Part shown: positions 32,685 to 43,409 of the stretch, in pieces
Numbering within the stretch: the first letter of the stretch is position 1
How the letters are laid out: the number at the start of each line of letters is the position of its first letter
NCBI GenBank assembly: GCA_963771075.1
Contig: CAVYSE010000018.1
Coordinates: forward strand, 220,558-284,557
DNA length: 64,000 nucleotides
From: a candidate division FCPU426 bacterium
GTDB taxonomy: Bacteria > Oederibacteriota > Muellerivitia > Muellerivitales > Muellerivitaceae
Direction of reading: 5' to 3'
Notes under the pieces: generated by a model
Told to the model about the DNA's origin: nothing
Databases searched by the model: none
What the model saw: only the letters and a program-made list of their open reading frames with translations
Made by a program: the position numbers and the translations under genes

Positions 32685-32835
32685 TCCCCTTTCATTCGGC
32701 CCCCCCTTGGCCTTTTTAAAAGGAATTAAAGGCGAAACCCACCTTCGGGAAGTTTCAGCCGTCTTTTCAAATAAATCCCCTGGTTTTGCGATAAAATAAA
32801 GCGAGTTGTTTCCCTTCATCCACCGTTGGAGCCTT

Positions 32836-35800
32836 ATGCGAATCGTTTTAAGACCCTTGCCCTCTATATATTATTTCGCCCTTGCCTTGACCTTCCTGGC
32901 TCCCGGCGCTTTCGCCTCGACCGTTGCCGGCCACATCAAAACCGATAACTTCGGATACCGGACGACCGACTCGAAGATCGCTTATTTCACGGAAAACCCC
33001 GGTTCGGCGGTTAGCCTGGTGAATGCCAGCTCCGGCACGGCGGTTTATGGCGTCCCGGCGGCGGATATCATCAGCAAGGGGACGGACCCCACCTCGATCA
33101 CCGGCGACACGGTTTGGTGGGTCGATTTCTCCGCCTACACCACGCCTGGAAGCTATTACGTCCTTTCGACCAGCTTGAACGAGCAGTCCTACACGTTCCA
33201 GATCAACGACTGTATCTACCAGGCGCCTATGACCGCCACCCTGAAGGCCCTCTACTACCAGCGTTGCGGATGCGCCCATCCCGCCCAATACGCGGGAGCC
33301 AATTGGTCCGACAGCGGCGTCTGCCACTCGCAGGACGCGGCTTGCGGGCCCGCCTCCGGATGCACCTTTCCAAACACCTACGGCACCTTGAACCTGGAGG
33401 GCGGTTGGCACGACGCGGGGGACTTCAATAAATATATCGGCTCCACGCCCACCGGCGCCTGCGCCAATTGGGGCGGGGACTCCGGGGAAGCCCTCCACGA
33501 CCTGCTGACGGCCTATGAGTGGAACCCCGCCCTTTTCCAGGGCCTCTCCTCCAACATTCCCGAGTCGGGGAATGGGGTCGCGGACATCCTCAACGAGGCC
33601 ATGTGGGAACTGACTTGGTACCAGAAGATGCAGATGACGGATTACCATGTTTTGTCGGTGGTGCATGCCACGGGCGGGGGAGGCCAGTCGCCGCCCAGCA
33701 CGGACACCCAAACCCGCTATTACTACCCGCCCAACCCGGCGGGGGAGGCCCAGTTCGTGGCCATCATGTCCCACGCCGCGAGGGTTTTATCGGGGGTCCC
33801 GGGTCTTGCCAGCGCCGCGGTGTCGTTTAAGACCGCGGCGGAAAACACCTGGAACGCCTTCGTGTCCTCGGCCCCGGTGACCAACCAGCAGTTCTGGGCC
33901 GCCGCCGAGATCTTCCGCATGGAGGAGGCCCTGGGCGGGTCGGCCGCGATCGAGAGCAAAGCCCAATCCATCGTGGACAACTACCAGAACTGGAACGGAT
34001 TTTGGCTCAACGAGGACCTGTTCCAACAGAACTGGGGCATGCTGGCCTATATGCAGGCCACGAACGCCACCGCCTCGGTGGTGGCCAACATGAAGGCGGA
34101 TTGGGGCAACCTGGTCGCCAACATCTTTTCGGTAAACGATATTTACAACTCGGGAATGAACACTTACGACTATTTCTGGGGAGCCGATGAGGTAAAGATG
34201 AATTACGCCCTGGAGCTGTTATGGGCGGCCAAACTGAACATGACCGGGAGTTCCAGCGCGGTCACGTGCCAGCAGCAAGCCGAGAATTTCCTCCATTACA
34301 TGAATGGGGCCAACCCCCTGAACATGACCTTGATGACCAACTCCAACGCCATCGGCGCTTCCCACGGCGTCTGGCGCATTTACCACCAATGGTTCGGGAA
34401 TTACAATCCCGTCAACGGCCCCGGCACCTATTCCTACGACAATTTCATCGGCAAACCCGTGTCGGTCCTGGATCCCCTCTATCCCTATTTTTCAGGGGTG
34501 GACGCCTGGGGCGTGAGTGACAGCGGACCCTCTTCCTTCGGACCCCCGCCGGGTATCGTTCCGGATGGGCCGAGCCATGGTTACGTGGATTCCAATGGAA
34601 AGGCCCAGCCGCCCCTCTTGTCGGGCGGAGGGGCGCCGCCCTATGAGAAGGATTACCGGGATTGGGATTTTGTCGACAGCTCCGGGGTTTCTACCATTCC
34701 TTGGGTCGTGAACGAAACGGGGCTTTATTACACCGCCTCCTACATGATCGTAGCTTCGGCCTTCACCAATGCCTGCGCCACCGGGGCGACATCCACCCCC
34801 ACCCGGACCGCTACCCTCACCCCCACGAGGACGGCCACAGGCACCGCTTCCCCAACCGCAACCTTGACCCTTTCGCCCACCCGTTCGATAACCCCTACGG
34901 CGACTTCCACGGTCACGGCGACCCTGACCCCCACGGGTTCATTAACACCTACCATCACCTTGACCACCACGCCCACCCGGTCGATGACGCCGACGCCAAC
35001 CCGCACCTTCACCTCCACCCCCTCCACCACGGGTACCGCAACCTTGACCGTCACCTTAAGCGCTTCGCCCACCCGTTCGATGACCCCCACGGCGACTTTC
35101 TCGGCCACGGCGACCTCGACCACCACGGGTTCCCCAACATCGACCGCCACCTCGACCCTTACCCCCACCCACACGGCGACACCCCCTTCGTCACCTACCC
35201 TTACGGCGACTTCGACCACCACCGGGTCGGCCACCTCTACCCCCACCTCGACCTTGACGGGTACCGCGACCTCGACCGTCACCTTAAGCCATTCGCCCAC
35301 CCGGTCGATGACCCCCACAGCGACTTTTACGGTCACGGCGACCCCGACCGCCACGGGTTCCTCAACATCGACCGTTATCTCGACCCTTACCCCCACCCGC
35401 ACGACGACACCCACTTCGTCACCTACCCTAACGGCGACCGCGACCACCACCGGGTCGGCCACCTCTTCCGCCACATCCACCGCGTCCCGCACCCCAACCG
35501 CAACGGCGACTTCCACGGGTTCCTCCACCGGCACCCTATCCCCGACCTCCACCCCTACGGCTTCCAGGACCCCGTCGGTGACGATCACCGCTACGCCCTC
35601 CATTACCTTGACCTCGACGCCGTCCACCACCCGCACTCCCACTTCTACCTTGAGCCCCACGGCCAGTTTCACAGCGACGATCACAGGCACTTCGACCCTG
35701 TCGTCCACGATCACACCGACCCCGGTTCTGAGTTACACACCCAGCGATACCCCCACGATCACCCAGACCTTCACGGTAACCCTTACCCTTAGCCTGACCC

Positions 35801-36861
35801 CCTCTCCGACGTCCTCCCGAACACCCACCTCGTCTTATACCGAAACCGCCACTTCCACGGCCACCTTGCCACCCACCTTTACCAATACACCCACATCTAC
35901 CGCGATATGGTCCATCACCTATACATGGTCGCCTACTACCACCCCCACCTTGACCTGGACCCCCACCTTCACCTTCACACCGACATTCACGCTAACCCTC
36001 ACCAATACTCTGTCGCCGACTTCCACCGGCACACCCACGGCCTCCCCGACCCCCACCCCTACTTTCTCCAACACCTCTGCGCTAACGGCCACTCCCTCTC
36101 CGGTCTTTACCTTGACCACCACGGGAACTTGGACCACGACCTGGACTTCCACCCCCACCGCCACCCTTTCCGCCACTTCCTCGGCCACTTGGACTGCAAG
36201 CTTGACGTTCACCGCGACCCCGCCCTTCAGCTCTACCTGGACTCCCACGGGGACGGCCACCCATACCTCCACCGGAACGAGAACTTGGACGGCTACGGCC
36301 ACACCCAGTTGGACCTTCTCCTTCACTGAAACCTCGACGTCCTCCCTTACCCCAACCCGTACAATTACCCCCACGGTCACCGCCACGTCCACGGGCATGG
36401 ATACGGCGACCTGGACAAGTACTTTGACCTTTTCCTTTACGCCCTCTCCCAGCGCGACTTCTTCTTGGACACCCCTTTGGACGGGAACCCCCACGCCAAG
36501 CGCGACGAACAGCCAGACCGCGACCTTGACCCCCAGTTGGACCCCGACGCCCGTTCCCACAACAGCCCTAACGGCCACTGTCACCCTCACTCCCCTGTCC
36601 CAACCGGCTCTTTATCCCAACCCGGTCACCGGAAACACGGTCAACCTGTCGATTCCCTATGGAGGAAACGTGCAGGTGAATGTTTACACCCTGGCCTTCC
36701 GAAGGGTGATCCACCTGACCCTCAACCAAATGGTCCCGGGCGCGGTCGTTTCCTTGGGACTGACGGATGATTGGGGGAAGCCCATTTCCGACGGCCTTTA
36801 TTACGTGGTGGTCACGGGGCAGGGAAAAAGGTGGATCGGTAAGTTGCTGGTCTTAAGGTGA
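32836..36861 (+). CDS. GH9 glycoside hydrolase (Ig-like N-domain) + Thr/Ser/Pro stalk + T9SS-like CTD
   Basis: [21 protein letters not shown]; ~600-aa TxT stalk; YPNP...GLYYV...KLLVLR. Confidence 0.92.
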
Positions 36862-37012
36862 GCCAGGGAGGTACCCGTTTAACTTTTTTGAACCGGTTCA
36901 GGCCTTTGCCCTATGTTCCCGGATGTTAAAATGGGTTTGTCGGATGAAATCCCCTTGGCCTGAAATCCTTACTTCTTGAAATCAAATTTGTATTTCGTTT
37001 CCCCGGGAAAAA

Positions 37013-40000
37013 ATGAACAAGTTAAAACCCTTTTTATACGGCGTAATTTTGGTTGGGTTTTCCCCGGCGCTTTACGCGGCGGCCGTTACCTTTACGGTCG
37101 ATCCGACCCAAAACAATAGCCCCATCTCCCCCTATATTTACGGTTCGAACAGCGCCATCACGAACGTCGCCAATACCTATTACCGGTGTGGCGGAAATCG
37201 TCTTTCCGCCTATAACTGGGAAACCAACTGGTCGAACGCCGGGAGCGACTACTATTACGAGAACGATACCCTGATGGGAAGCCTCTCCTGGGGCCCCGGG
37301 GGAACGGCGGTGACCTTTCTAAACCAAAACAAGGCCAGGGGGGCGGACTCCCTTTGGACCTTGGCGTTGGCTGGCTACGTATCCGCGAATGGCGAGACCC
37401 CCGTGCAGGTTCCAACCGCCGATTTCATGGCCGCTCCCGGGCAAACCGACCCCCACGGCAATTTCTTTCCGGTCACCTTCGTGAAGGGTTCGCCCTTCGC
37501 CGACCCGCCCAACACCGCCGACGGGGTGGTCTATATGGACGAGAGCGTCAACTACTTCGTCAACCACCTGGGCAAGGCCGGAAGCGGGGGGATCCGGTTT
37601 TACGACCTGGACAACGAGCCAGGCGCCTGGTCCGCGGTTCACCAAGAAATCCATAATTATCCCGTCAGCTACATCGAGGTCGCGACCAAGGGCATTACCG
37701 TGGCGACCCAGACGACCGCGCTGGATTCGGGCGCCCAGATCCTCGGGCCGGTCGCGGACGGCTGGTCCGACATGATCAATTTGGGCGGAGCACCCGACGC
37801 GGGAAATTACTCAGCCTATAACACCAACAACACCTGGGTGCCCTTCCTGAACTATTACCTGGCCATGTTCCAGCAGGCTTCCGCCACTGCGGGGCGGAGG
37901 CTTTTGCATTACCTGGATTGCCATGTTTACTCCGAGGGCACGGACGCCGCGGGTAGCCGAATCAACGACGCGGATGTCAGCCAGGACGCGGCCACGACCC
38001 GCATGCAGCTTCCCCGGGAAATGTGGGACCCAACCTTCACGGAGAACAACTGGATTTCCTGCTGCGTCCCCCATTATGGTCCCCTGACGCTCATCCCCCG
38101 GCTCCAGGCCGCCGTCAGCCAGTATTACCCCGGCACGAACCTGGCCTTCACGGAGTACGACTACGGGGGAGGTGGCGACATTTCGGGCGGTATCGCCCAG
38201 GCGGACTTCCTGGGCATCCTGACGAAGGTCCCGGGCACCCTAGCCTCCATTTGGGATGTGGGGGCGGGCCAGCAGTACCTCACCTGCGCCTTCAACTTTT
38301 ACCTCGACTACGACGGGTCGGGGTCCAAGTTCGGGGACACCTCCATCCTGGCCAATTCCAACAACGTGCCCGAGGCCACGGTTTACGCCGCCAAGGACAG
38401 CAGCCACCCCGACCGATTGAACGTGATCATCCTGAACAAGGATTACACCAACAACAATACCGCCAGCGTGACCCTCTCCAACCTGGGAACGGGCCAGCAA
38501 ATCGCCTCCATCCGGGCCTTCCGATTCGACTCGGCGATTTCCGTCATCACCGCCTCGACCGCGCCCTCCTTCACGGCCAACACCTTTACCGATACCCTCC
38601 CTTTTCGTTCCGCGAGCCTTTACGAGCTGACCCTCAGCCAGGGCTTCTTCACTTCCACCCCCTCGGCCACCCCGACCCTGACGGCCACCACCACCGGCAC
38701 CCAACCCACCCTTACCCGTACCCCCACGGTGACCCTGACCCCCAGCATCACTCTCACCCCTATCGCCACCCTGACGCCCACATTCACCGCCACCCAATGC
38801 GTCCAGTTGCTCAATGGCTGTGAATCCCTGACGGAGAACGGGTCCTGGTCCGGAAGCAACTCGAACCTATCCCTATCGACCACGGATGCCACCCAGCTCA
38901 CCCACAGCCTGCAGGCGGCGGTGACCAACAACCCGGCGGGTGGGTGGAACGACCAGGTTTTTAACCTTTCGGGCTTTACCCCCACCAATTGGTCGAATGT
39001 GAGCCAGCTGATGGTGGATATCAACGTGCCGGCAGGCCTGATCGGTTCCTCCTATAGCCAGTTTTACCTTTTCGCGGACTCGGCCCCAACGACCTACGAG
39101 CAGGAACTCGCCACCAACGGGGTCAACGTGGTGGCGGGCCAGAACAACAACCTGACCTTCAACATCAGCCTCACGGGGGCCTTTAACCCCAGTTCCCCCA
39201 TCACGAAGCTTTATTTTATTTACAACAACAACGCTCCCACGGGGGCCGGGACCTACGGAAGCTTTTACGTGGATAATATCCGGCTGGTGGCGGCCTGCGG
39301 GACCGCTCCCACCCCGACCTCGACGCCCAGCCGAACCGCCACACCGACCCCCAGTATGACCGGGACCCCGACGATGACCGTCTCCACCACCCCGACTTCA
39401 ACGCGTTCGCAAACACCGACCTTTTCCCCCACGGTGAGCGCTACCTGGACCGGTACGGCCACCCTTACCCCGCCCGCAAACACCGCCACGGCGACCCCGT
39501 TTAATTCCCCTACCCCCACTCGAACGATGACCCTGACCGCGACTTCCACTTTCACACCTACGGTCCCTTTCACCTGGACGGCGACGGGGACCTATACCAT
39601 GACGCCGACGGCAACCCTTTCCCCCACCCCCACAATCACCCTTACCCCGTCCCCTTCAACGACCCGAACACCCTCCGTGACTTTGAGCCCGACCGCCACC
39701 TCCACCCCAACCCTATCGCCTTCCGTCACCCAAACACCGCCATTAAGTTACACACCCACACAATCCCCCACGATCAGCCTGACGCCCACCCCGACCTCAA
39801 CGGGCACCCTCACCCGGACGCCAACGGCGACCAACACGGGAACCCCAACCTTTACCCTCACCCAGACTCCAACGGGAACCTATTCCGCCACTGCTTCACC
39901 CACAATAACCCCCTCGCCCACCCCTACTTCGACCTGGACAACCACCCCAACCAAAAGTCCCACTGGCACCATGACCCCCACGGATACCCTTTCGCCCTCG

Positions 40001-40663
40001 GCATCCTTCACCGTCACCTTGACCCCGACTTCAACGATCAGCTGGACCGCGACCTCGACCGGGACTCAAACGGAAAGCCCCACCGGGACGCCGCCGCCTA
40101 CCCTAACCCTTTCCCCCACGTCGACCGGAACGGCCACCCCGACCCTGACCCCAACCCACACCTGGTCGCCCACCTTCACCGCCACGCCTACCGGGACAAA
40201 TTCTTATACCTCGACGGCAACGCCGACAAATACACCCACCCAAACGAACAGCCCGGTTCCGGCGACCCTCACACCCAGCGCCACGCTGGTCTTTACCGGA
40301 ACCTATACCTTGACCGCGACCATTACCCCGACGGTGACCTTGAGTCCCGCTTTCACCGGGACCGCGACCCGGACGGCTACGCCGGTTCTATTGCCGCAGT
40401 CCCAACCAGTGCTCTATCCCAACCCCGCCCTTGGAAACACGGTCAATCTGTCGATTCCCTATGGAGGAAACGTGCAGGTGGTGGTTTACACCCTGGCGTT
40501 CCGAAAGGTGATTCACATGAACCTTTCCCAACAAGTTCCCGGAGGGGTGGTGGTCTTAAGCCTGACGGATGATTGGGGTAAGCCCATTTCCGACGGCCTT
40601 TATTACGTGGTGGTCACGGGGCAGGGAAAAAGGTGGCTTGGGAAATTGCTCGTCCTGAGATAA
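37013..40663 (+). CDS. GH44 glycoside hydrolase + CBM-like domain + stalk + T9SS-like CTD
   Basis: GGNRLSAYNWETNWSNAGSD, LDNEP, FTEYDYGGG; CBM-like ...YVDNIRL; same CTD. Confidence 0.9.
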   Translation: MNKLKPFLYGVILVGFSPALYAAAVTFTVDPTQNNSPISPYIYGSNSAITNVANTYYRCGGNRLSAYNWETNWSNAGSDYYYENDTLMGSLSWGPGGTAVTFLNQNKARGADSLWTLALAGYVSANGETPVQVPTADFMAAPGQTDPHGNFFPVTFVKGSPFADPPNTADGVVYMDESVNYFVNHLGKAGSGGIRFYDLDNEPGAWSAVHQEIHNYPVSYIEVATKGITVATQTTALDSGAQILGPVADGWSDMINLGGAPDAGNYSAYNTNNTWVPFLNYYLAMFQQASATAGRRLLHYLDCHVYSEGTDAAGSRINDADVSQDAATTRMQLPREMWDPTFTENNWISCCVPHYGPLTLIPRLQAAVSQYYPGTNLAFTEYDYGGGGDISGGIAQADFLGILTKVPGTLASIWDVGAGQQYLTCAFNFYLDYDGSGSKFGDTSILANSNNVPEATVYAAKDSSHPDRLNVIILNKDYTNNNTASVTLSNLGTGQQIASIRAFRFDSAISVITASTAPSFTANTFTDTLPFRSASLYELTLSQGFFTSTPSATPTLTATTTGTQPTLTRTPTVTLTPSITLTPIATLTPTFTATQCVQLLNGCESLTENGSWSGSNSNLSLSTTDATQLTHSLQAAVTNNPAGGWNDQVFNLSGFTPTNWSNVSQLMVDINVPAGLIGSSYSQFYLFADSAPTTYEQELATNGVNVVAGQNNNLTFNISLTGAFNPSSPITKLYFIYNNNAPTGAGTYGSFYVDNIRLVAACGTAPTPTSTPSRTATPTPSMTGTPTMTVSTTPTSTRSQTPTFSPTVSATWTGTATLTPPANTATATPFNSPTPTRTMTLTATSTFTPTVPFTWTATGTYTMTPTATLSPTPTITLTPSPSTTRTPSVTLSPTATSTPTLSPSVTQTPPLSYTPTQSPTISLTPTPTSTGTLTRTPTATNTGTPTFTLTQTPTGTYSATASPTITPSPTPTSTWTTTPTKSPTGTMTPTDTLSPSASFTVTLTPTSTISWTATSTGTQTESPTGTPPPTLTLSPTSTGTATPTLTPTHTWSPTFTATPTGTNSYTSTATPTNTPTQTNSPVPATLTPSATLVFTGTYTLTATITPTVTLSPAFTGTATRTATPVLLPQSQPVLYPNPALGNTVNLSIPYGGNVQVVVYTLAFRKVIHMNLSQQVPGGVVVLSLTDDWGKPISDGLYYVVVTGQGKRWLGKLLVLR

Positions 40664-40731
40664 AAATTTCGGTCCGCAAGTTATTCTTTGTTTTTCTTTG
40701 GTAAAAGGCATGGTTTTCATTCCACCTTCAT

Positions 40732-40759
40732 TAAAATTCGTGCGCCGGTTAGCCGATAA
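40732..40759 (+). promoter_or_regulatory. Sigma28 (FliA/SigD)-type promoter
   Basis: TAAA-N16-GCCGATAA. Confidence 0.65.
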
Positions 40760-40769
40760 AGAGTTAAAA

Positions 40770-41170
40770 TAGGGTTGTAGGAAGGGTTCCGAGGGTAGCG
40801 CCCATGGGCGCGGCGGGGACTTAAGGTCCCAAACCGATAGGGAACCCGGTCGCCGAAAGCCGGATGACTGGAAAGGGTTTCAAAGTGGGCACCCTCTGGG
40901 GTGCGGCGGGAACTGAGGTTCCAAAGCGCGGAAAACCCGGCCTGGTTGGTTCGGTGGACTCTTGAAGAGTGGTTGTGGTTTGCGAAGTTTGTTTTTGAAG
41001 TGAAACGGGTAGGAGTTAGTACAATCGTCGGAAGGGTTCAAGGGTTACGCCGAATGGCGCGGGGCAAAGGCCCAAAACCAAGTAAGAATCCTGCTGAAGA
41101 TATTGCTAGTGTAGAGGGAAGGTCGCAGTGAAGTCGGCCCTGGGGCGCCTGCCGGCCCCGGGGCTTTTTT
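40770..41170 (+). ncRNA. Candidate ~400-nt ncRNA with three structured repeats
   Basis: Promoter upstream, terminator downstream, no credible ORF, covarying stems in units 40780-40847, 40870-40938 and 41030-41092. Confidence 0.6.
41137..41170 (+). terminator. Intrinsic terminator
   Basis: GCCCTGGGGC/GCCCCGGGGC stem followed by T6. Confidence 0.8.
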
Positions 41171-41355
41171 ATTTCTGGGCACCCATCCTGAATGAACTGT
41201 TGTAGGACCTTATTAACATCCGCTCCAACTCAAACCTAGGAATTCAGGGCAAATGGGTTGAACGTTTTTGGGGGCCAAGCCTCGCAAATAATAGAGATTG
41301 TTCCTCTATATTGATCTTCGGCGAGTTTTGGTCCTGTCGGTAAAGCGCTGGACCC

Positions 41356-41892
41356 TTAAATGAACTTGTGGCGGATCGTCAGGTTCAAGGCCACGAAGAG
41401 GCCAAGCGCGCATTCCATCCCGAAGGCGATGAACAGCCGTTTTCGGATTTGGGGGTCTGGCGAGAAGATGGCAGATAAAAAGTCGAAGGGTGCCAGGAAA
41501 ATCACCGCGAAAATGCGGACGATGACTAGAAACAAGAATAGGTCCACGGGAACGTTTTTCATCACGGCCTCCATTGGGAGAAGCAAATTCAGGGTGACCC
41601 CGGCTATCTCCATCAAGGGTCCGGTGGCCGCCAGCCCCAGCACGGCCCAGGAATAACCGCGCCAGAACCAGGGGGCCTTTCGGAGAAAGAAGAGCGCCAA
41701 GAGGGTGGGAAACAGGGCGGCGACGCCCGAGACCTCAAAAAAGAGAATGGCCGAGCCTTCGGCGTACATCCCGGAAGATTGGTTGGCCCAGGCCGGGGCG
41801 AACCGTTCATGCAGGTCCTCAACTAGCAGGCCTAGCCCAAGCGCCGCTACATAACCCAACAGGACTAGAGCCACTTTGAAGGTTGTTTTCAT
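41356..41892 (-). CDS. Integral membrane hypothetical protein
   Basis: About five hydrophobic helices. Confidence 0.75.
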   Translation of the reverse strand: MKTTFKVALVLLGYVAALGLGLLVEDLHERFAPAWANQSSGMYAEGSAILFFEVSGVAALFPTLLALFFLRKAPWFWRGYSWAVLGLAATGPLMEIAGVTLNLLLPMEAVMKNVPVDLFLFLVIVRIFAVIFLAPFDFLSAIFSPDPQIRKRLFIAFGMECALGLFVALNLTIRHKFI

Positions 41893-42386
41893 GGGTCCAA
41901 TTTAGCGCAAAAAGGGGAGCGGGAGCGTCTGTTTTTTAGTAACCGGGATGGCTAGATGGGTACTCGTAAACCAAGGTGATCAAAATGAATCAGATCGATT
42001 TACACGAAAGGGGAACGCCATAACTGTTCAGGGAACGGTAAAGCAACCTCAACACGAGGTACTATTAAAGTAAAGAAATAAAATTTTTACCACCAAGGCA
42101 CTAAGAAAAACTCGTGTTTTGATGCCGATAAAACCAAAAAGAAATGTTTAGAGAAAATCTTGAAGTGGCGGCTGCTCCAGGTTTTTTCATTTTTTGGTCT
42201 TGCTCTCTCGTACGACCTAGCTTCTGAAACGGCATAATTCCCGCGGGAAAACAAACCCACGGCGCCAATTTCAACAATAAAGCCCCGTAAAATTATCTCC
42301 AGTATGATTTCCGTCAAATTAACCTTGGCTTCATGGGGTTACACTTATGCTTCCTGTAAACCATTCCATCCGAAGAGGAGAACTCC

Positions 42387-43049
42387 ATGCAATTCATTCT
42401 TTTGGGCGAGCCGGGGGCTGGGAAGGGAACCTATTCGGCGGTTTTGATTAAGAAATTCCAAATCCCCCAGGTTTCCACCGGCGATATCCTTCGCGCGGCG
42501 GTCAAGGCGGGCACGCCCTTGGGATTGAAAGCCCAGGAGTTCATGAAAAAGGGAGAACTGGTCCCCGATGAGGTGGTGATCGGACTGGTGCGGGAGCGGC
42601 TCAAGGAAGCCGACGCGGCCAAGGGGTTCATCCTGGACGGCTTTCCCCGCACGATACCCCAGGCCCAGACTTTGGAAGGGATCTTGAACGAGCTGGGAAA
42701 GCCGGTGAACGCGGTTTTGAAAATCGAGGTCAGCCGGGAAACTTTGATCGAGCGATTGACCGGGCGCCGGTCCTGCAAGGTCTGCGGGACGGGATACAAC
42801 GTCAATACCGGGTTGGCCCCGAAGAAAGACGGTGTTTGCGACAAGTGCGGCGGGGAAGTGATCCAGCGGGCGGATGACAACCGGGCCACCATCGAGAACC
42901 GCTTGAACGTGTACACCAAAGACACCGCTCCCCTGGTGGAATTTTACGAGAAGAAGGGCCTGCTCAAGCGCATCCCCTGCGAAGGGCCATTGGATGAGGT
43001 CTTGGCCCGATTTGAGAAGGCGGCCTTGGGGGCCGTGGGCCGGGCTTAG
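42387..43049 (+). CDS. adk: Adenylate kinase (Zn-LID type)
   Basis: GEPGAGKGT, STGDILR, ILDGFPRT, CxxC...CxxC LID, QRADD. Confidence 0.98.
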   Translation: MQFILLGEPGAGKGTYSAVLIKKFQIPQVSTGDILRAAVKAGTPLGLKAQEFMKKGELVPDEVVIGLVRERLKEADAAKGFILDGFPRTIPQAQTLEGILNELGKPVNAVLKIEVSRETLIERLTGRRSCKVCGTGYNVNTGLAPKKDGVCDKCGGEVIQRADDNRATIENRLNVYTKDTAPLVEFYEKKGLLKRIPCEGPLDEVLARFEKAALGAVGRA

Positions 43050-43181: not shown

Positions 43182-43409
43182 TTCTTGATCTTGTTGAGAG
43201 TTCTTGTTTGTTTTTGTATTTGTTTATTTCTTGTCTGGTTTCCTTGAGAACCTACCTTTGATGACGGAATGCCCTGTATACGCCAAGGCAAAACCCGTTT
43301 TTAACATGACCATAGTCATAAATTTTTAAGCCTTAGGACCAATATCATGGCCTGTCGTGATGTCCGCCGGATTCTGCCGGTTGATCTTACTTAATAAGGG
43401 GAGTTCCCG

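Follow-up and report, generated by a model that had tools for sequence, protein, structure and literature searches.

A non-coding RNA gene of three related Y-shaped domains in an uncultured peat and soil lineage

Junction-containing domains set in series are known from the tandem riboswitch aptamers (glycine, glnA and c-di-AMP). Three groups of bacterial RNAs outside the riboswitches also bear comparison with the locus described here. CsrB/RsmY/RsmZ and CrcZ “function by sequestering regulatory proteins”, in the words of the accessible part of PMC5703892. The same part of that paper links FnrS of E. coli and PhrS of P. aeruginosa to CRP/FNR activation and energy metabolism, and both pair with mRNAs. 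OLE, ROOL and GOLLD are described as RNA-only assemblies in the portion available of PMC12286853, and the raiA/ModT RNA is shown to act in trans in that of PMC11706538.

The window is the whole 64,000-nt stretch of DNA that was analyzed. It contains a non-coding RNA gene that is real and uncatalogued, ~395 nt in length, with three related Y-shaped domains. It is a structured RNA family of narrow range and of the stand-alone regulatory kind. The gene spans positions ~40776–41172, is single-copy in the source genome (termed G000) and appears to lie on the + strand, with a start at ~40776–40777 predicted from a -10-like element. The strand assignment relies on the G-U pairs, the terminator and the promoter elements, because the folding energy is only moderately unusual and units 1 and 2 fold no worse on the reverse strand. 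Coordinates are collected in Table 1.

Table 1. Features of the three-domain RNA gene and its upstream region (window positions).
Feature	Positions	Strand	Remarks
sigma28-like TAAA-N16-GCCGATAA	40732..40759	+	TAAA at 40732-35, N16, then GCCGATAA at 40752-59; read from sequence; private to the G000 copy; probably incidental
AT-rich -10-like TAAAAT	40765..40770	+	same place in 13/13 copies
domain 1	40776..40856	+	irregular basal stem, P1, weak P1b, three-way junction P2/P3, AAA
domain 1 stems	P1 40784-90/40841-47; P2 40798-811; P3 40816-30	+	
domain 2	40859..40955	+	two basal helices, P1, P2, P3; helices 85-97% paired
domain 2 stems	P1 40875-80/40933-38; P2 40889-904; P3 40909-22	+	
variable G/U-rich linker, domains 2 to 3	40956..41014	+	
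domain 3	41016..41110	+	basal stems, P1, P1b, P2, P3; most conserved domain
domain 3 stems	P1 41033-39/41086-92; P2 41048-59; P3 41062-73	+	
intrinsic terminator	41136..41172	+	11-bp G+C-rich stem (41136-65) and U run; in 13/13 copies
stretch under exact contigs of 304-325 nt	40795..41118	.	four peat metatranscriptome runs, one study

The RNA resembles CsrB/RsmY/RsmZ and CrcZ, as far as the accessible text describes them, in being stand-alone, apparently regulator-induced, terminator-ended, a few hundred nt long and built of repeated modules. Its repeats, however, are branched domains of 80–97 nt, whereas theirs are short GGA or A-rich motifs, and neither CsrA nor Hfq was found in the host family here (31 genomes). 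With FnrS and PhrS (PMC5703892, in part) it shares an apparent CRP/FNR activation and a link to energy metabolism. Those two RNAs pair with mRNAs, whereas the present one is mostly conserved helix with no conserved seed. It is highly structured and ORF-less, as are raiA/ModT (PMC11706538) and OLE, ROOL and GOLLD (PMC12286853) in the portions consulted; it differs from these in having no Rfam match, three internal repeats, a range of one family and no phage or plasmid copy among the searches made. Action in trans is shown for ModT and is read here from gene context. The tandem aptamers are similar in the serial arrangement of domains. Unlike them, the RNA gives no sequence or model match and has no expression platform, and its downstream gene is convergent in about half of the copies.

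The domains share one plan: on a long irregular basal stem, past an internal loop, stands a 6–7-bp P1; beyond a second loop come a short P1b and the three-way junction, which carries a variable P2 and a conserved P3 followed by AA(A). The units open with GGAA(A)GGGTT at 40780, 40870 and 41030. An initial annotation, made from the sequence, had described three such units, and its closing stems, its hairpins 2 and 3 (each followed by AAA), the terminator and the convergent gene are all found where it had put them. Its units are as described; only their extent was understated, as longer irregular basal stems bring the domains to ~80–97 nt. In a MAFFT alignment of 13 copies (see below), the paired cells of domain 1 amount to 92% in P1, 100% in P3 and 62% in P1b. 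The orthologues of domain 3, compared unit by unit, are 78% identical. The linker is 18–85 nt long across these copies, 61–75% G+U and C-poor, and GGAG(G)U often lies 3′ of it. This motif was considered as a sign of coding and dropped, no start codon being seen by eye at a usable distance. A 76-codon open reading frame (40901–41131) was likewise rejected as coding: it has no Pfam match, and no open reading frame is shared among the 13 copies. The locus is ORF-less, as the initial annotation had it.

A sequence-free descriptor (a closing stem of at least 6 bp around two hairpins, the second followed by AA) gave 4 matches in 40732–41170; three were reached in 1 of 150 shuffles and four in 0 of 150. 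The folding energy of the whole transcript is only moderately unusual (z = -1.9; -2.5, -1.2 and -2.1 for units 1, 2 and 3), and for units 1 and 2 the opposite strand folds equally well or better. The support for the structure is therefore comparative. It comes from domains 1 and 2 of the 13 copies, aligned with MAFFT by sequence only, with the structure drawn by hand. In this alignment 87.4% of cells are paired, and a control with slid partners gave 29–62%. Two-sided changes are found in 22 of 48 pairs, as against 10.0 ± 2.2 in shuffles (0 of 500 as high; relatedness between copies uncorrected). Another pair count, which took in six weak rows and used a model-fitted alignment, was set aside for this one. 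RNAalifold finds the whole of domain 3, with its four helices, unaided; on the 13-row alignment it does not recover P1 of domains 1 and 2. The covarying three-way-junction repeats that had been proposed at the outset are supported by the pair count and by domain 3. No well-supported antiterminator was found.

In 37 of 38 units a C-G pair closes P3. The loops are mostly UGAG, AAAG or CAAG, and 23 of 38 fit the stable-tetraloop motif YNMG, as defined in the accessible part of PMC2346598. Since most P3 loops are of this generic stable type, the conservation may be partly for folding alone. A 9-mer common to P3 and 16S rRNA was judged, by a rough estimate, to be chance.

The units were placed in a tree of 38 rows; the third domain of G012, which was seen by eye and by folding, was left unscored by the covariance model R1 and is omitted. 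The units cluster by position and not by genome, with 2 changes, which is the minimum (shuffled mean 18.4). Orthologous domains are 63–78% identical and the domains within one RNA 48–58%. This grouping by position argues for an old triplication without homogenization.

The three-domain RNA is found in 10 of 31 genomes of the family (G000, G002, G003, G004, G007, G012, G015, G020, G021 and G027) and on 3 further metagenome contigs; it was not found in 68 other genomes of the phylum. BLAST detected the whole element in 7 relatives, and the models R1 and R2, which scored the best 26–141 candidates per genome (several genomes being incomplete), raised the carriers to 10. A pattern scan of metagenomes turned up 4 loci, of which 3 had not been seen before; L061 duplicates the G007 copy exactly, and the two were taken as one. 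In all there are 13 distinct copies of 359–415 nt, each with three domains and the terminator. Weak model matches in or across coding sequence were dropped as chance: G074 (L060), a second site in G012 (L058), G005 (L108, L114), G013 (L110), an Oscillospiraceae sequence (L026) and a viral contig (L116).

BLAST, a unit covariance model and nhmmer show only these three units, at one locus, in the 4.39-Mb genome. A dispersed REP family, which the initial annotation had named as a possible outcome, is not what is seen: there is one locus per genome. Identity to the G000 copy falls from 80% to 58% and tracks host-protein divergence (Spearman 0.76, n = 9; kin not independent). This pattern fits vertical descent with losses. 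A ~120-nt degenerate single-domain paralog is present at ~1450–1590 of L059 (G007:C230, minus strand). It has a basal stem, P1, P1b, P2 and a degenerate P3; a -10-like element and a terminator of its own go with it, and it sits between a cNMP-domain-like gene and an opposite-strand dedA-like gene.

Rfam 15 gives 0 matches over the window at the gathering threshold. With E-values up to 10, the G000 copy and 9 homologues show only sub-threshold matches, the best of them on the terminator. The RNA is thus undescribed in Rfam, as had been supposed. Searches with conserved motif strings and by topic yielded no description in the literature searched; the supplements of motif-discovery studies could still hold it. 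Likenesses to the c-di-AMP, glnA, ykkC, SAM-I and TPP riboswitches have no support from Rfam. A diverged housekeeping RNA was dismissed, RNase P, tmRNA and a 6S-like RNA being encoded elsewhere in G000, and the Y RNA/Ro60 system was set aside on finding no match to Ro60 (TROVE, PF05731) in G000, the sole genome searched. The 6S-like RNA, at G000:C6 35574–35755 (minus strand), scores 45.1 bits, just below the Rfam cut-off of 46.4.

Exact contigs are present in peat RNA libraries. Each of the four metatranscriptome runs compared, all from one study, contains one contig (304–325 nt, no mismatch), starting at 40795–40814, ending at 41117–41118 and bridging all three domains. A relative's copy, not identical to that of G000, gave contigs of 323 and 280 nt in runs X1 and X2. 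Assembled contigs show neither strand, ends nor level, and DNA carry-over is possible. The flanks 39500–40711 and 41217–42500 have no contig cover in the four runs, a study without a parallel DNA run; neither the bare flanks nor the stops at 41117–41118 were taken to show ends or abundance, and contig depths were left aside.

The 5′ neighbor of the RNA gene in G000 is a GH44-domain gene with threonine/proline repeats (37013–40663, +), and the 3′ neighbor is a 178-codon gene (41356–41892, -) that is convergent to it. Across the 13 copies, the downstream neighbor is clearly convergent in 6, on the same strand in 5 (different genes) and unclear in 2. The neighbors are of unrelated families, differing between genera and even within one genus, and include a kinase, an MFS exporter, LysR, a phosphoribosyltransferase, a Ric-like protein, an epimerase, DsbA and GH67. 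Because the neighbors differ between genera and about half are convergent, the RNA is not a cis-acting leader; neither a consistent same-strand downstream gene nor a switchable terminator, as in a riboswitch or leader, was found among the copies. The varying neighbors support the trans-acting RNA that had first been suggested. In G002 the repeat-protein gene is directly followed by adk, with the RNA slot empty, and in G003 the place taken by the RNA in G000 is occupied by a gene resembling a CRP-family regulator. Thus the RNA gene has changed places. No mobility gene was seen among the neighbors scanned.

A separate observation concerns window positions 32806–40663, which encode large glycoside-hydrolase-like proteins in tandem, one of them GH44; they look secreted and have long threonine/proline repeats. 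Their common C-terminal domain, ending in GKLLVLR, suggests a lineage-specific sorting signal.

The -10-like element has the forms TAAAAT, TATAA[AG]T, TAT[CT]AAT and TATAGT across the 13 copies. TGA-N6-TCA is present 23–24 nt before it, centered at ~-42, at one identical offset in 7 of the 13 (~0.001 expected per three positions), and 6 of these 7 have a perfect TGAY-N4-RTCAT. In class II CRP/FNR geometry the box is at -41.5, and a center ~41.5–42.5 nt upstream of the start would mark a member of such a regulon. With the start as predicted, the box of the 7 copies would fall in this range; the G000 copy has none. A further copy (L064) has a one-mismatch box shifted by one base, the three genus-level relatives of G000 have a half-site only, and G000 and G015 have no box. 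In G000 the box of the relatives would fall near 40730–40741, where it is absent (5 mismatches), so that this copy may be regulated differently.

In the intergenic DNA of G000, ATGAY-N4-RTCAT occurs 32 times (both strands), compared with 0–6 times in ten approximate shuffles; altered spacers show no enrichment there. A -10-like hexamer peaks 23 nt 3′ of the box (11 of 58 sites). Judged from sequence, the motif is a real regulatory signal in this genome. Such a box stands before two operons, one for an acetate transporter and one hydrogenase-4-like, and also before the genes for acetyl-CoA synthetase and ATP synthase subunit a, a CoA-transferase/deacetylase pair, nikR with a nickel transporter, and a CRP/FNR gene at G000:C11 191105–191803. 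The protein encoded by the latter has a cysteine-rich sensor region and a V-E-T-C-I-R helix; this V-E-T-x-I-R pattern is close to the FNR helix, VETISR. It would be the protein that binds the box, and the signal sensed would be oxygen, or carbon and energy state. Matches to it are found in 27 of 31 family genomes, including all 10 carriers (the best matches in G020 and G021 contain stops). As the regulator is in 27 genomes and the RNA in 10 only, the RNA is dispensable.

Other sites of this kind were noted. The presumed ATGAY-N4-RTCAT regulon of the CRP/FNR protein is seen in the window at 43306–43319, where a box precedes acyl-CoA dehydrogenase-ETF genes, and at G000:C11 160000–215000; the outer base of its box differs from the FNR consensus. 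A TGAT-N4-[GA]TCA box (window 42305–42318; L080, L081) lies upstream of a second adenylate kinase gene in G000, G002 and G003. At G000:C26 49816–51319 a second CRP-family gene (R-E-x-x-S-R helix) is divergent from the iron-sulfur repair gene ric. A GTGAC-N4-GTCAC box separates the two genes, which probably form a nitric-oxide response unit.

Control of the RNA is probably by CRP/FNR rather than by sigma28. The sigma28 promoter reported initially has its -10 upstream of 1 of the 13 copies only. In G000 intergenic DNA the sigma28 consensus occurs 5 times (1–4 in shuffles), which is not clearly enriched, and its -10 alone 82 times (54–83 in shuffles). The initial annotation had called for a check of fliA and csrA, and the outcome is divided: fliA is over the cut-off in G000 and has matches in 24 of 31 family genomes, but csrA was found in none. 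Carriers G015 (99% complete) and G007 (80%) gave no fliA match, and flagellin (PF00669) is found in 0 of 31, so the tie to a flagellar regulon is not supported. The CsrA sponge fares no better. CsrA (PF02599) is found in 0 of 31 genomes (control matched 3 of 14), as is Hfq (PF17209; control matched 5 of 14); GGA lies 5′ of P1 and is replaced in several units, and the repeated GGA in hairpin loops that marks CsrB/RsmZ was not found. Since fliA is present and the CRP/FNR box is lost from the G000 copy, a private sigma28 promoter in G000 is possible.

At G000:C7 ~6700–48500 lie clustered genes, named by eye, for a flagellar basal body, motor, export apparatus and hook, together with fliA and a flgM-like gene. 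Absence of flagellin matches beside fliA in 24 of 31 genomes possibly reflects a flagellar apparatus that lacks a filament or has been repurposed, or else a flagellin that is very divergent.

The preferred reading, put forward tentatively and somewhat short of an even call, is that of a stand-alone ~395-nt RNA, likely CRP/FNR-induced in most carriers, which likely acts in trans as a multivalent decoy or scaffold. An FNR-like CRP/FNR regulator would switch the RNA on during low-oxygen or carbon/energy shifts, and each of the three arms would bind one copy of the same protein in trans. The arms stem from an old triplication followed by divergence by position, and because of this divergence their binding sites would be unequal in affinity or role; a flexible spacer would be provided by the G/U-rich, C-poor linker. 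The logic of the titrating RNAs RsmZ and CrcZ fits best, because the RNA is apparently regulator-induced, terminator-ended and three-armed with homologous arms, and shows no cis target, seed or open reading frame. The multivalent design is kept, with three homologous domains in all 13 copies. The reading implies protein binding, with a partner other than CsrA. As Hfq and CsrA were not detected in the host family, the partner is probably a regulator not yet described.

Several results stand against a decoy. No partner protein was identified, and no single-unit copy marking a target mRNA leader was found in G000; single P3-like hairpins have 4 other intergenic matches there, none within a full unit. 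The domains within one RNA are only about half alike, with differing junctions, and the modular fold (-132.4 kcal/mol) differs from the minimum-energy fold of the G000 copy (-157.6 kcal/mol). Against the CRP/FNR part are the five copies without a full box (G000, its three genus-level relatives and G015). A redox- or energy-switched decoy class, in which three junction folds titrate a post-transcriptional regulator or a small signaling molecule in a lineage without Hfq/CsrA, is conceivable but on the unlikely side.

Next in probability, and rather unlikely, is a base-pairing sRNA of the FnrS, PhrS or GcvB type, in which the linker would be the seed for C/A-rich leaders, the arms would stabilize the molecule and an RRM protein might replace Hfq. 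The base composition of the linker, held in 13 of 13 copies, is in keeping with this, as are one encoded RRM protein with a glycine/arginine-rich tail and an induction of CRP/FNR type that parallels FnrS and PhrS (PMC5703892, accessible part). Against it, the linker varies from 18 to 85 nt with no conserved seed, Hfq is found in 0 of 31 genomes, and three-fifths or more of the RNA is conserved helix. Its best duplex among 2020 start regions (-36.4 kcal/mol, with a multicopy gene resembling a transposase) is no stronger than those of shuffled linkers (-35.0 to -40.9 kcal/mol).

Aptamers typically have a size like that of these domains and a three-way junction with A-rich strands, and riboswitches are known in tandem arrangements. 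The three domains could on these grounds be small-molecule aptamers without an expression platform, serving as a metabolite or second-messenger sponge or as an allosteric RNA, and the single-domain paralog in G007 (L059), with its own terminator, points the same way. This is improbable, as no riboswitch family scores on the domains at E-values up to 10 (10 copies), the invariant positions are mostly helical with a junction linker that differs between domains, and no copy is a leader with a consistent downstream gene.

The conserved A-rich junctions and internal loops, and a position-specific divergence that suits pseudo-symmetric packing, are what an RNA-only assembly of the OLE, ROOL, GOLLD or raiA/ModT type would show, the domains docking by tetraloop/A-minor contacts into a stable particle with a stress or dormancy role. 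Such an assembly is distinctly improbable: the P2 loops vary, with no complementarity seen by eye, no long-range conserved helix with clear support was found, and searches of phages, plasmids and viral contigs gave no true copy. The patchy presence (10 of 31), the neighbors that differ within a genus, and the slot that is empty in G002 and otherwise filled in G003 would suit an element that is selfish or mobile, or a repeat that has no function for its host. One copy per genome, a divergence that tracks the host protein (the correlation given above), a host regulator box kept in 7 of 13 copies and the lack of mobility genes among the neighbors scanned make this very improbable. The idea of a sigma28-dependent CsrA sponge tied to the flagellar regulon is rejected, both as regards CsrA and across the family, and retains a negligible probability: its near-consensus promoter in G000, fliA over the cut-off and the basal-body and hook genes on contig C7 (named by eye) are outweighed by CsrA and flagellin in 0 of 31 genomes, a sigma28 -10 in 1 of 13 copies and carriers without fliA.

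New, well-supported bacterial RNA folds are rare, and the RNA described here offers three natural variants per molecule. It comes with an apparent regulator and with presence in field RNA. Its general weight is limited by the narrow, patchy distribution. The 395-nt transcript or a single 90-nt domain is a concrete bait for pull-down, probing and cryo-EM. The RNA is also a possible marker of low-oxygen or energy state in an uncultured peat and soil lineage. If the redox-decoy reading is true, it would represent a new RNA-binding regulatory system linking anaerobic and acetate metabolism in peat bacteria.
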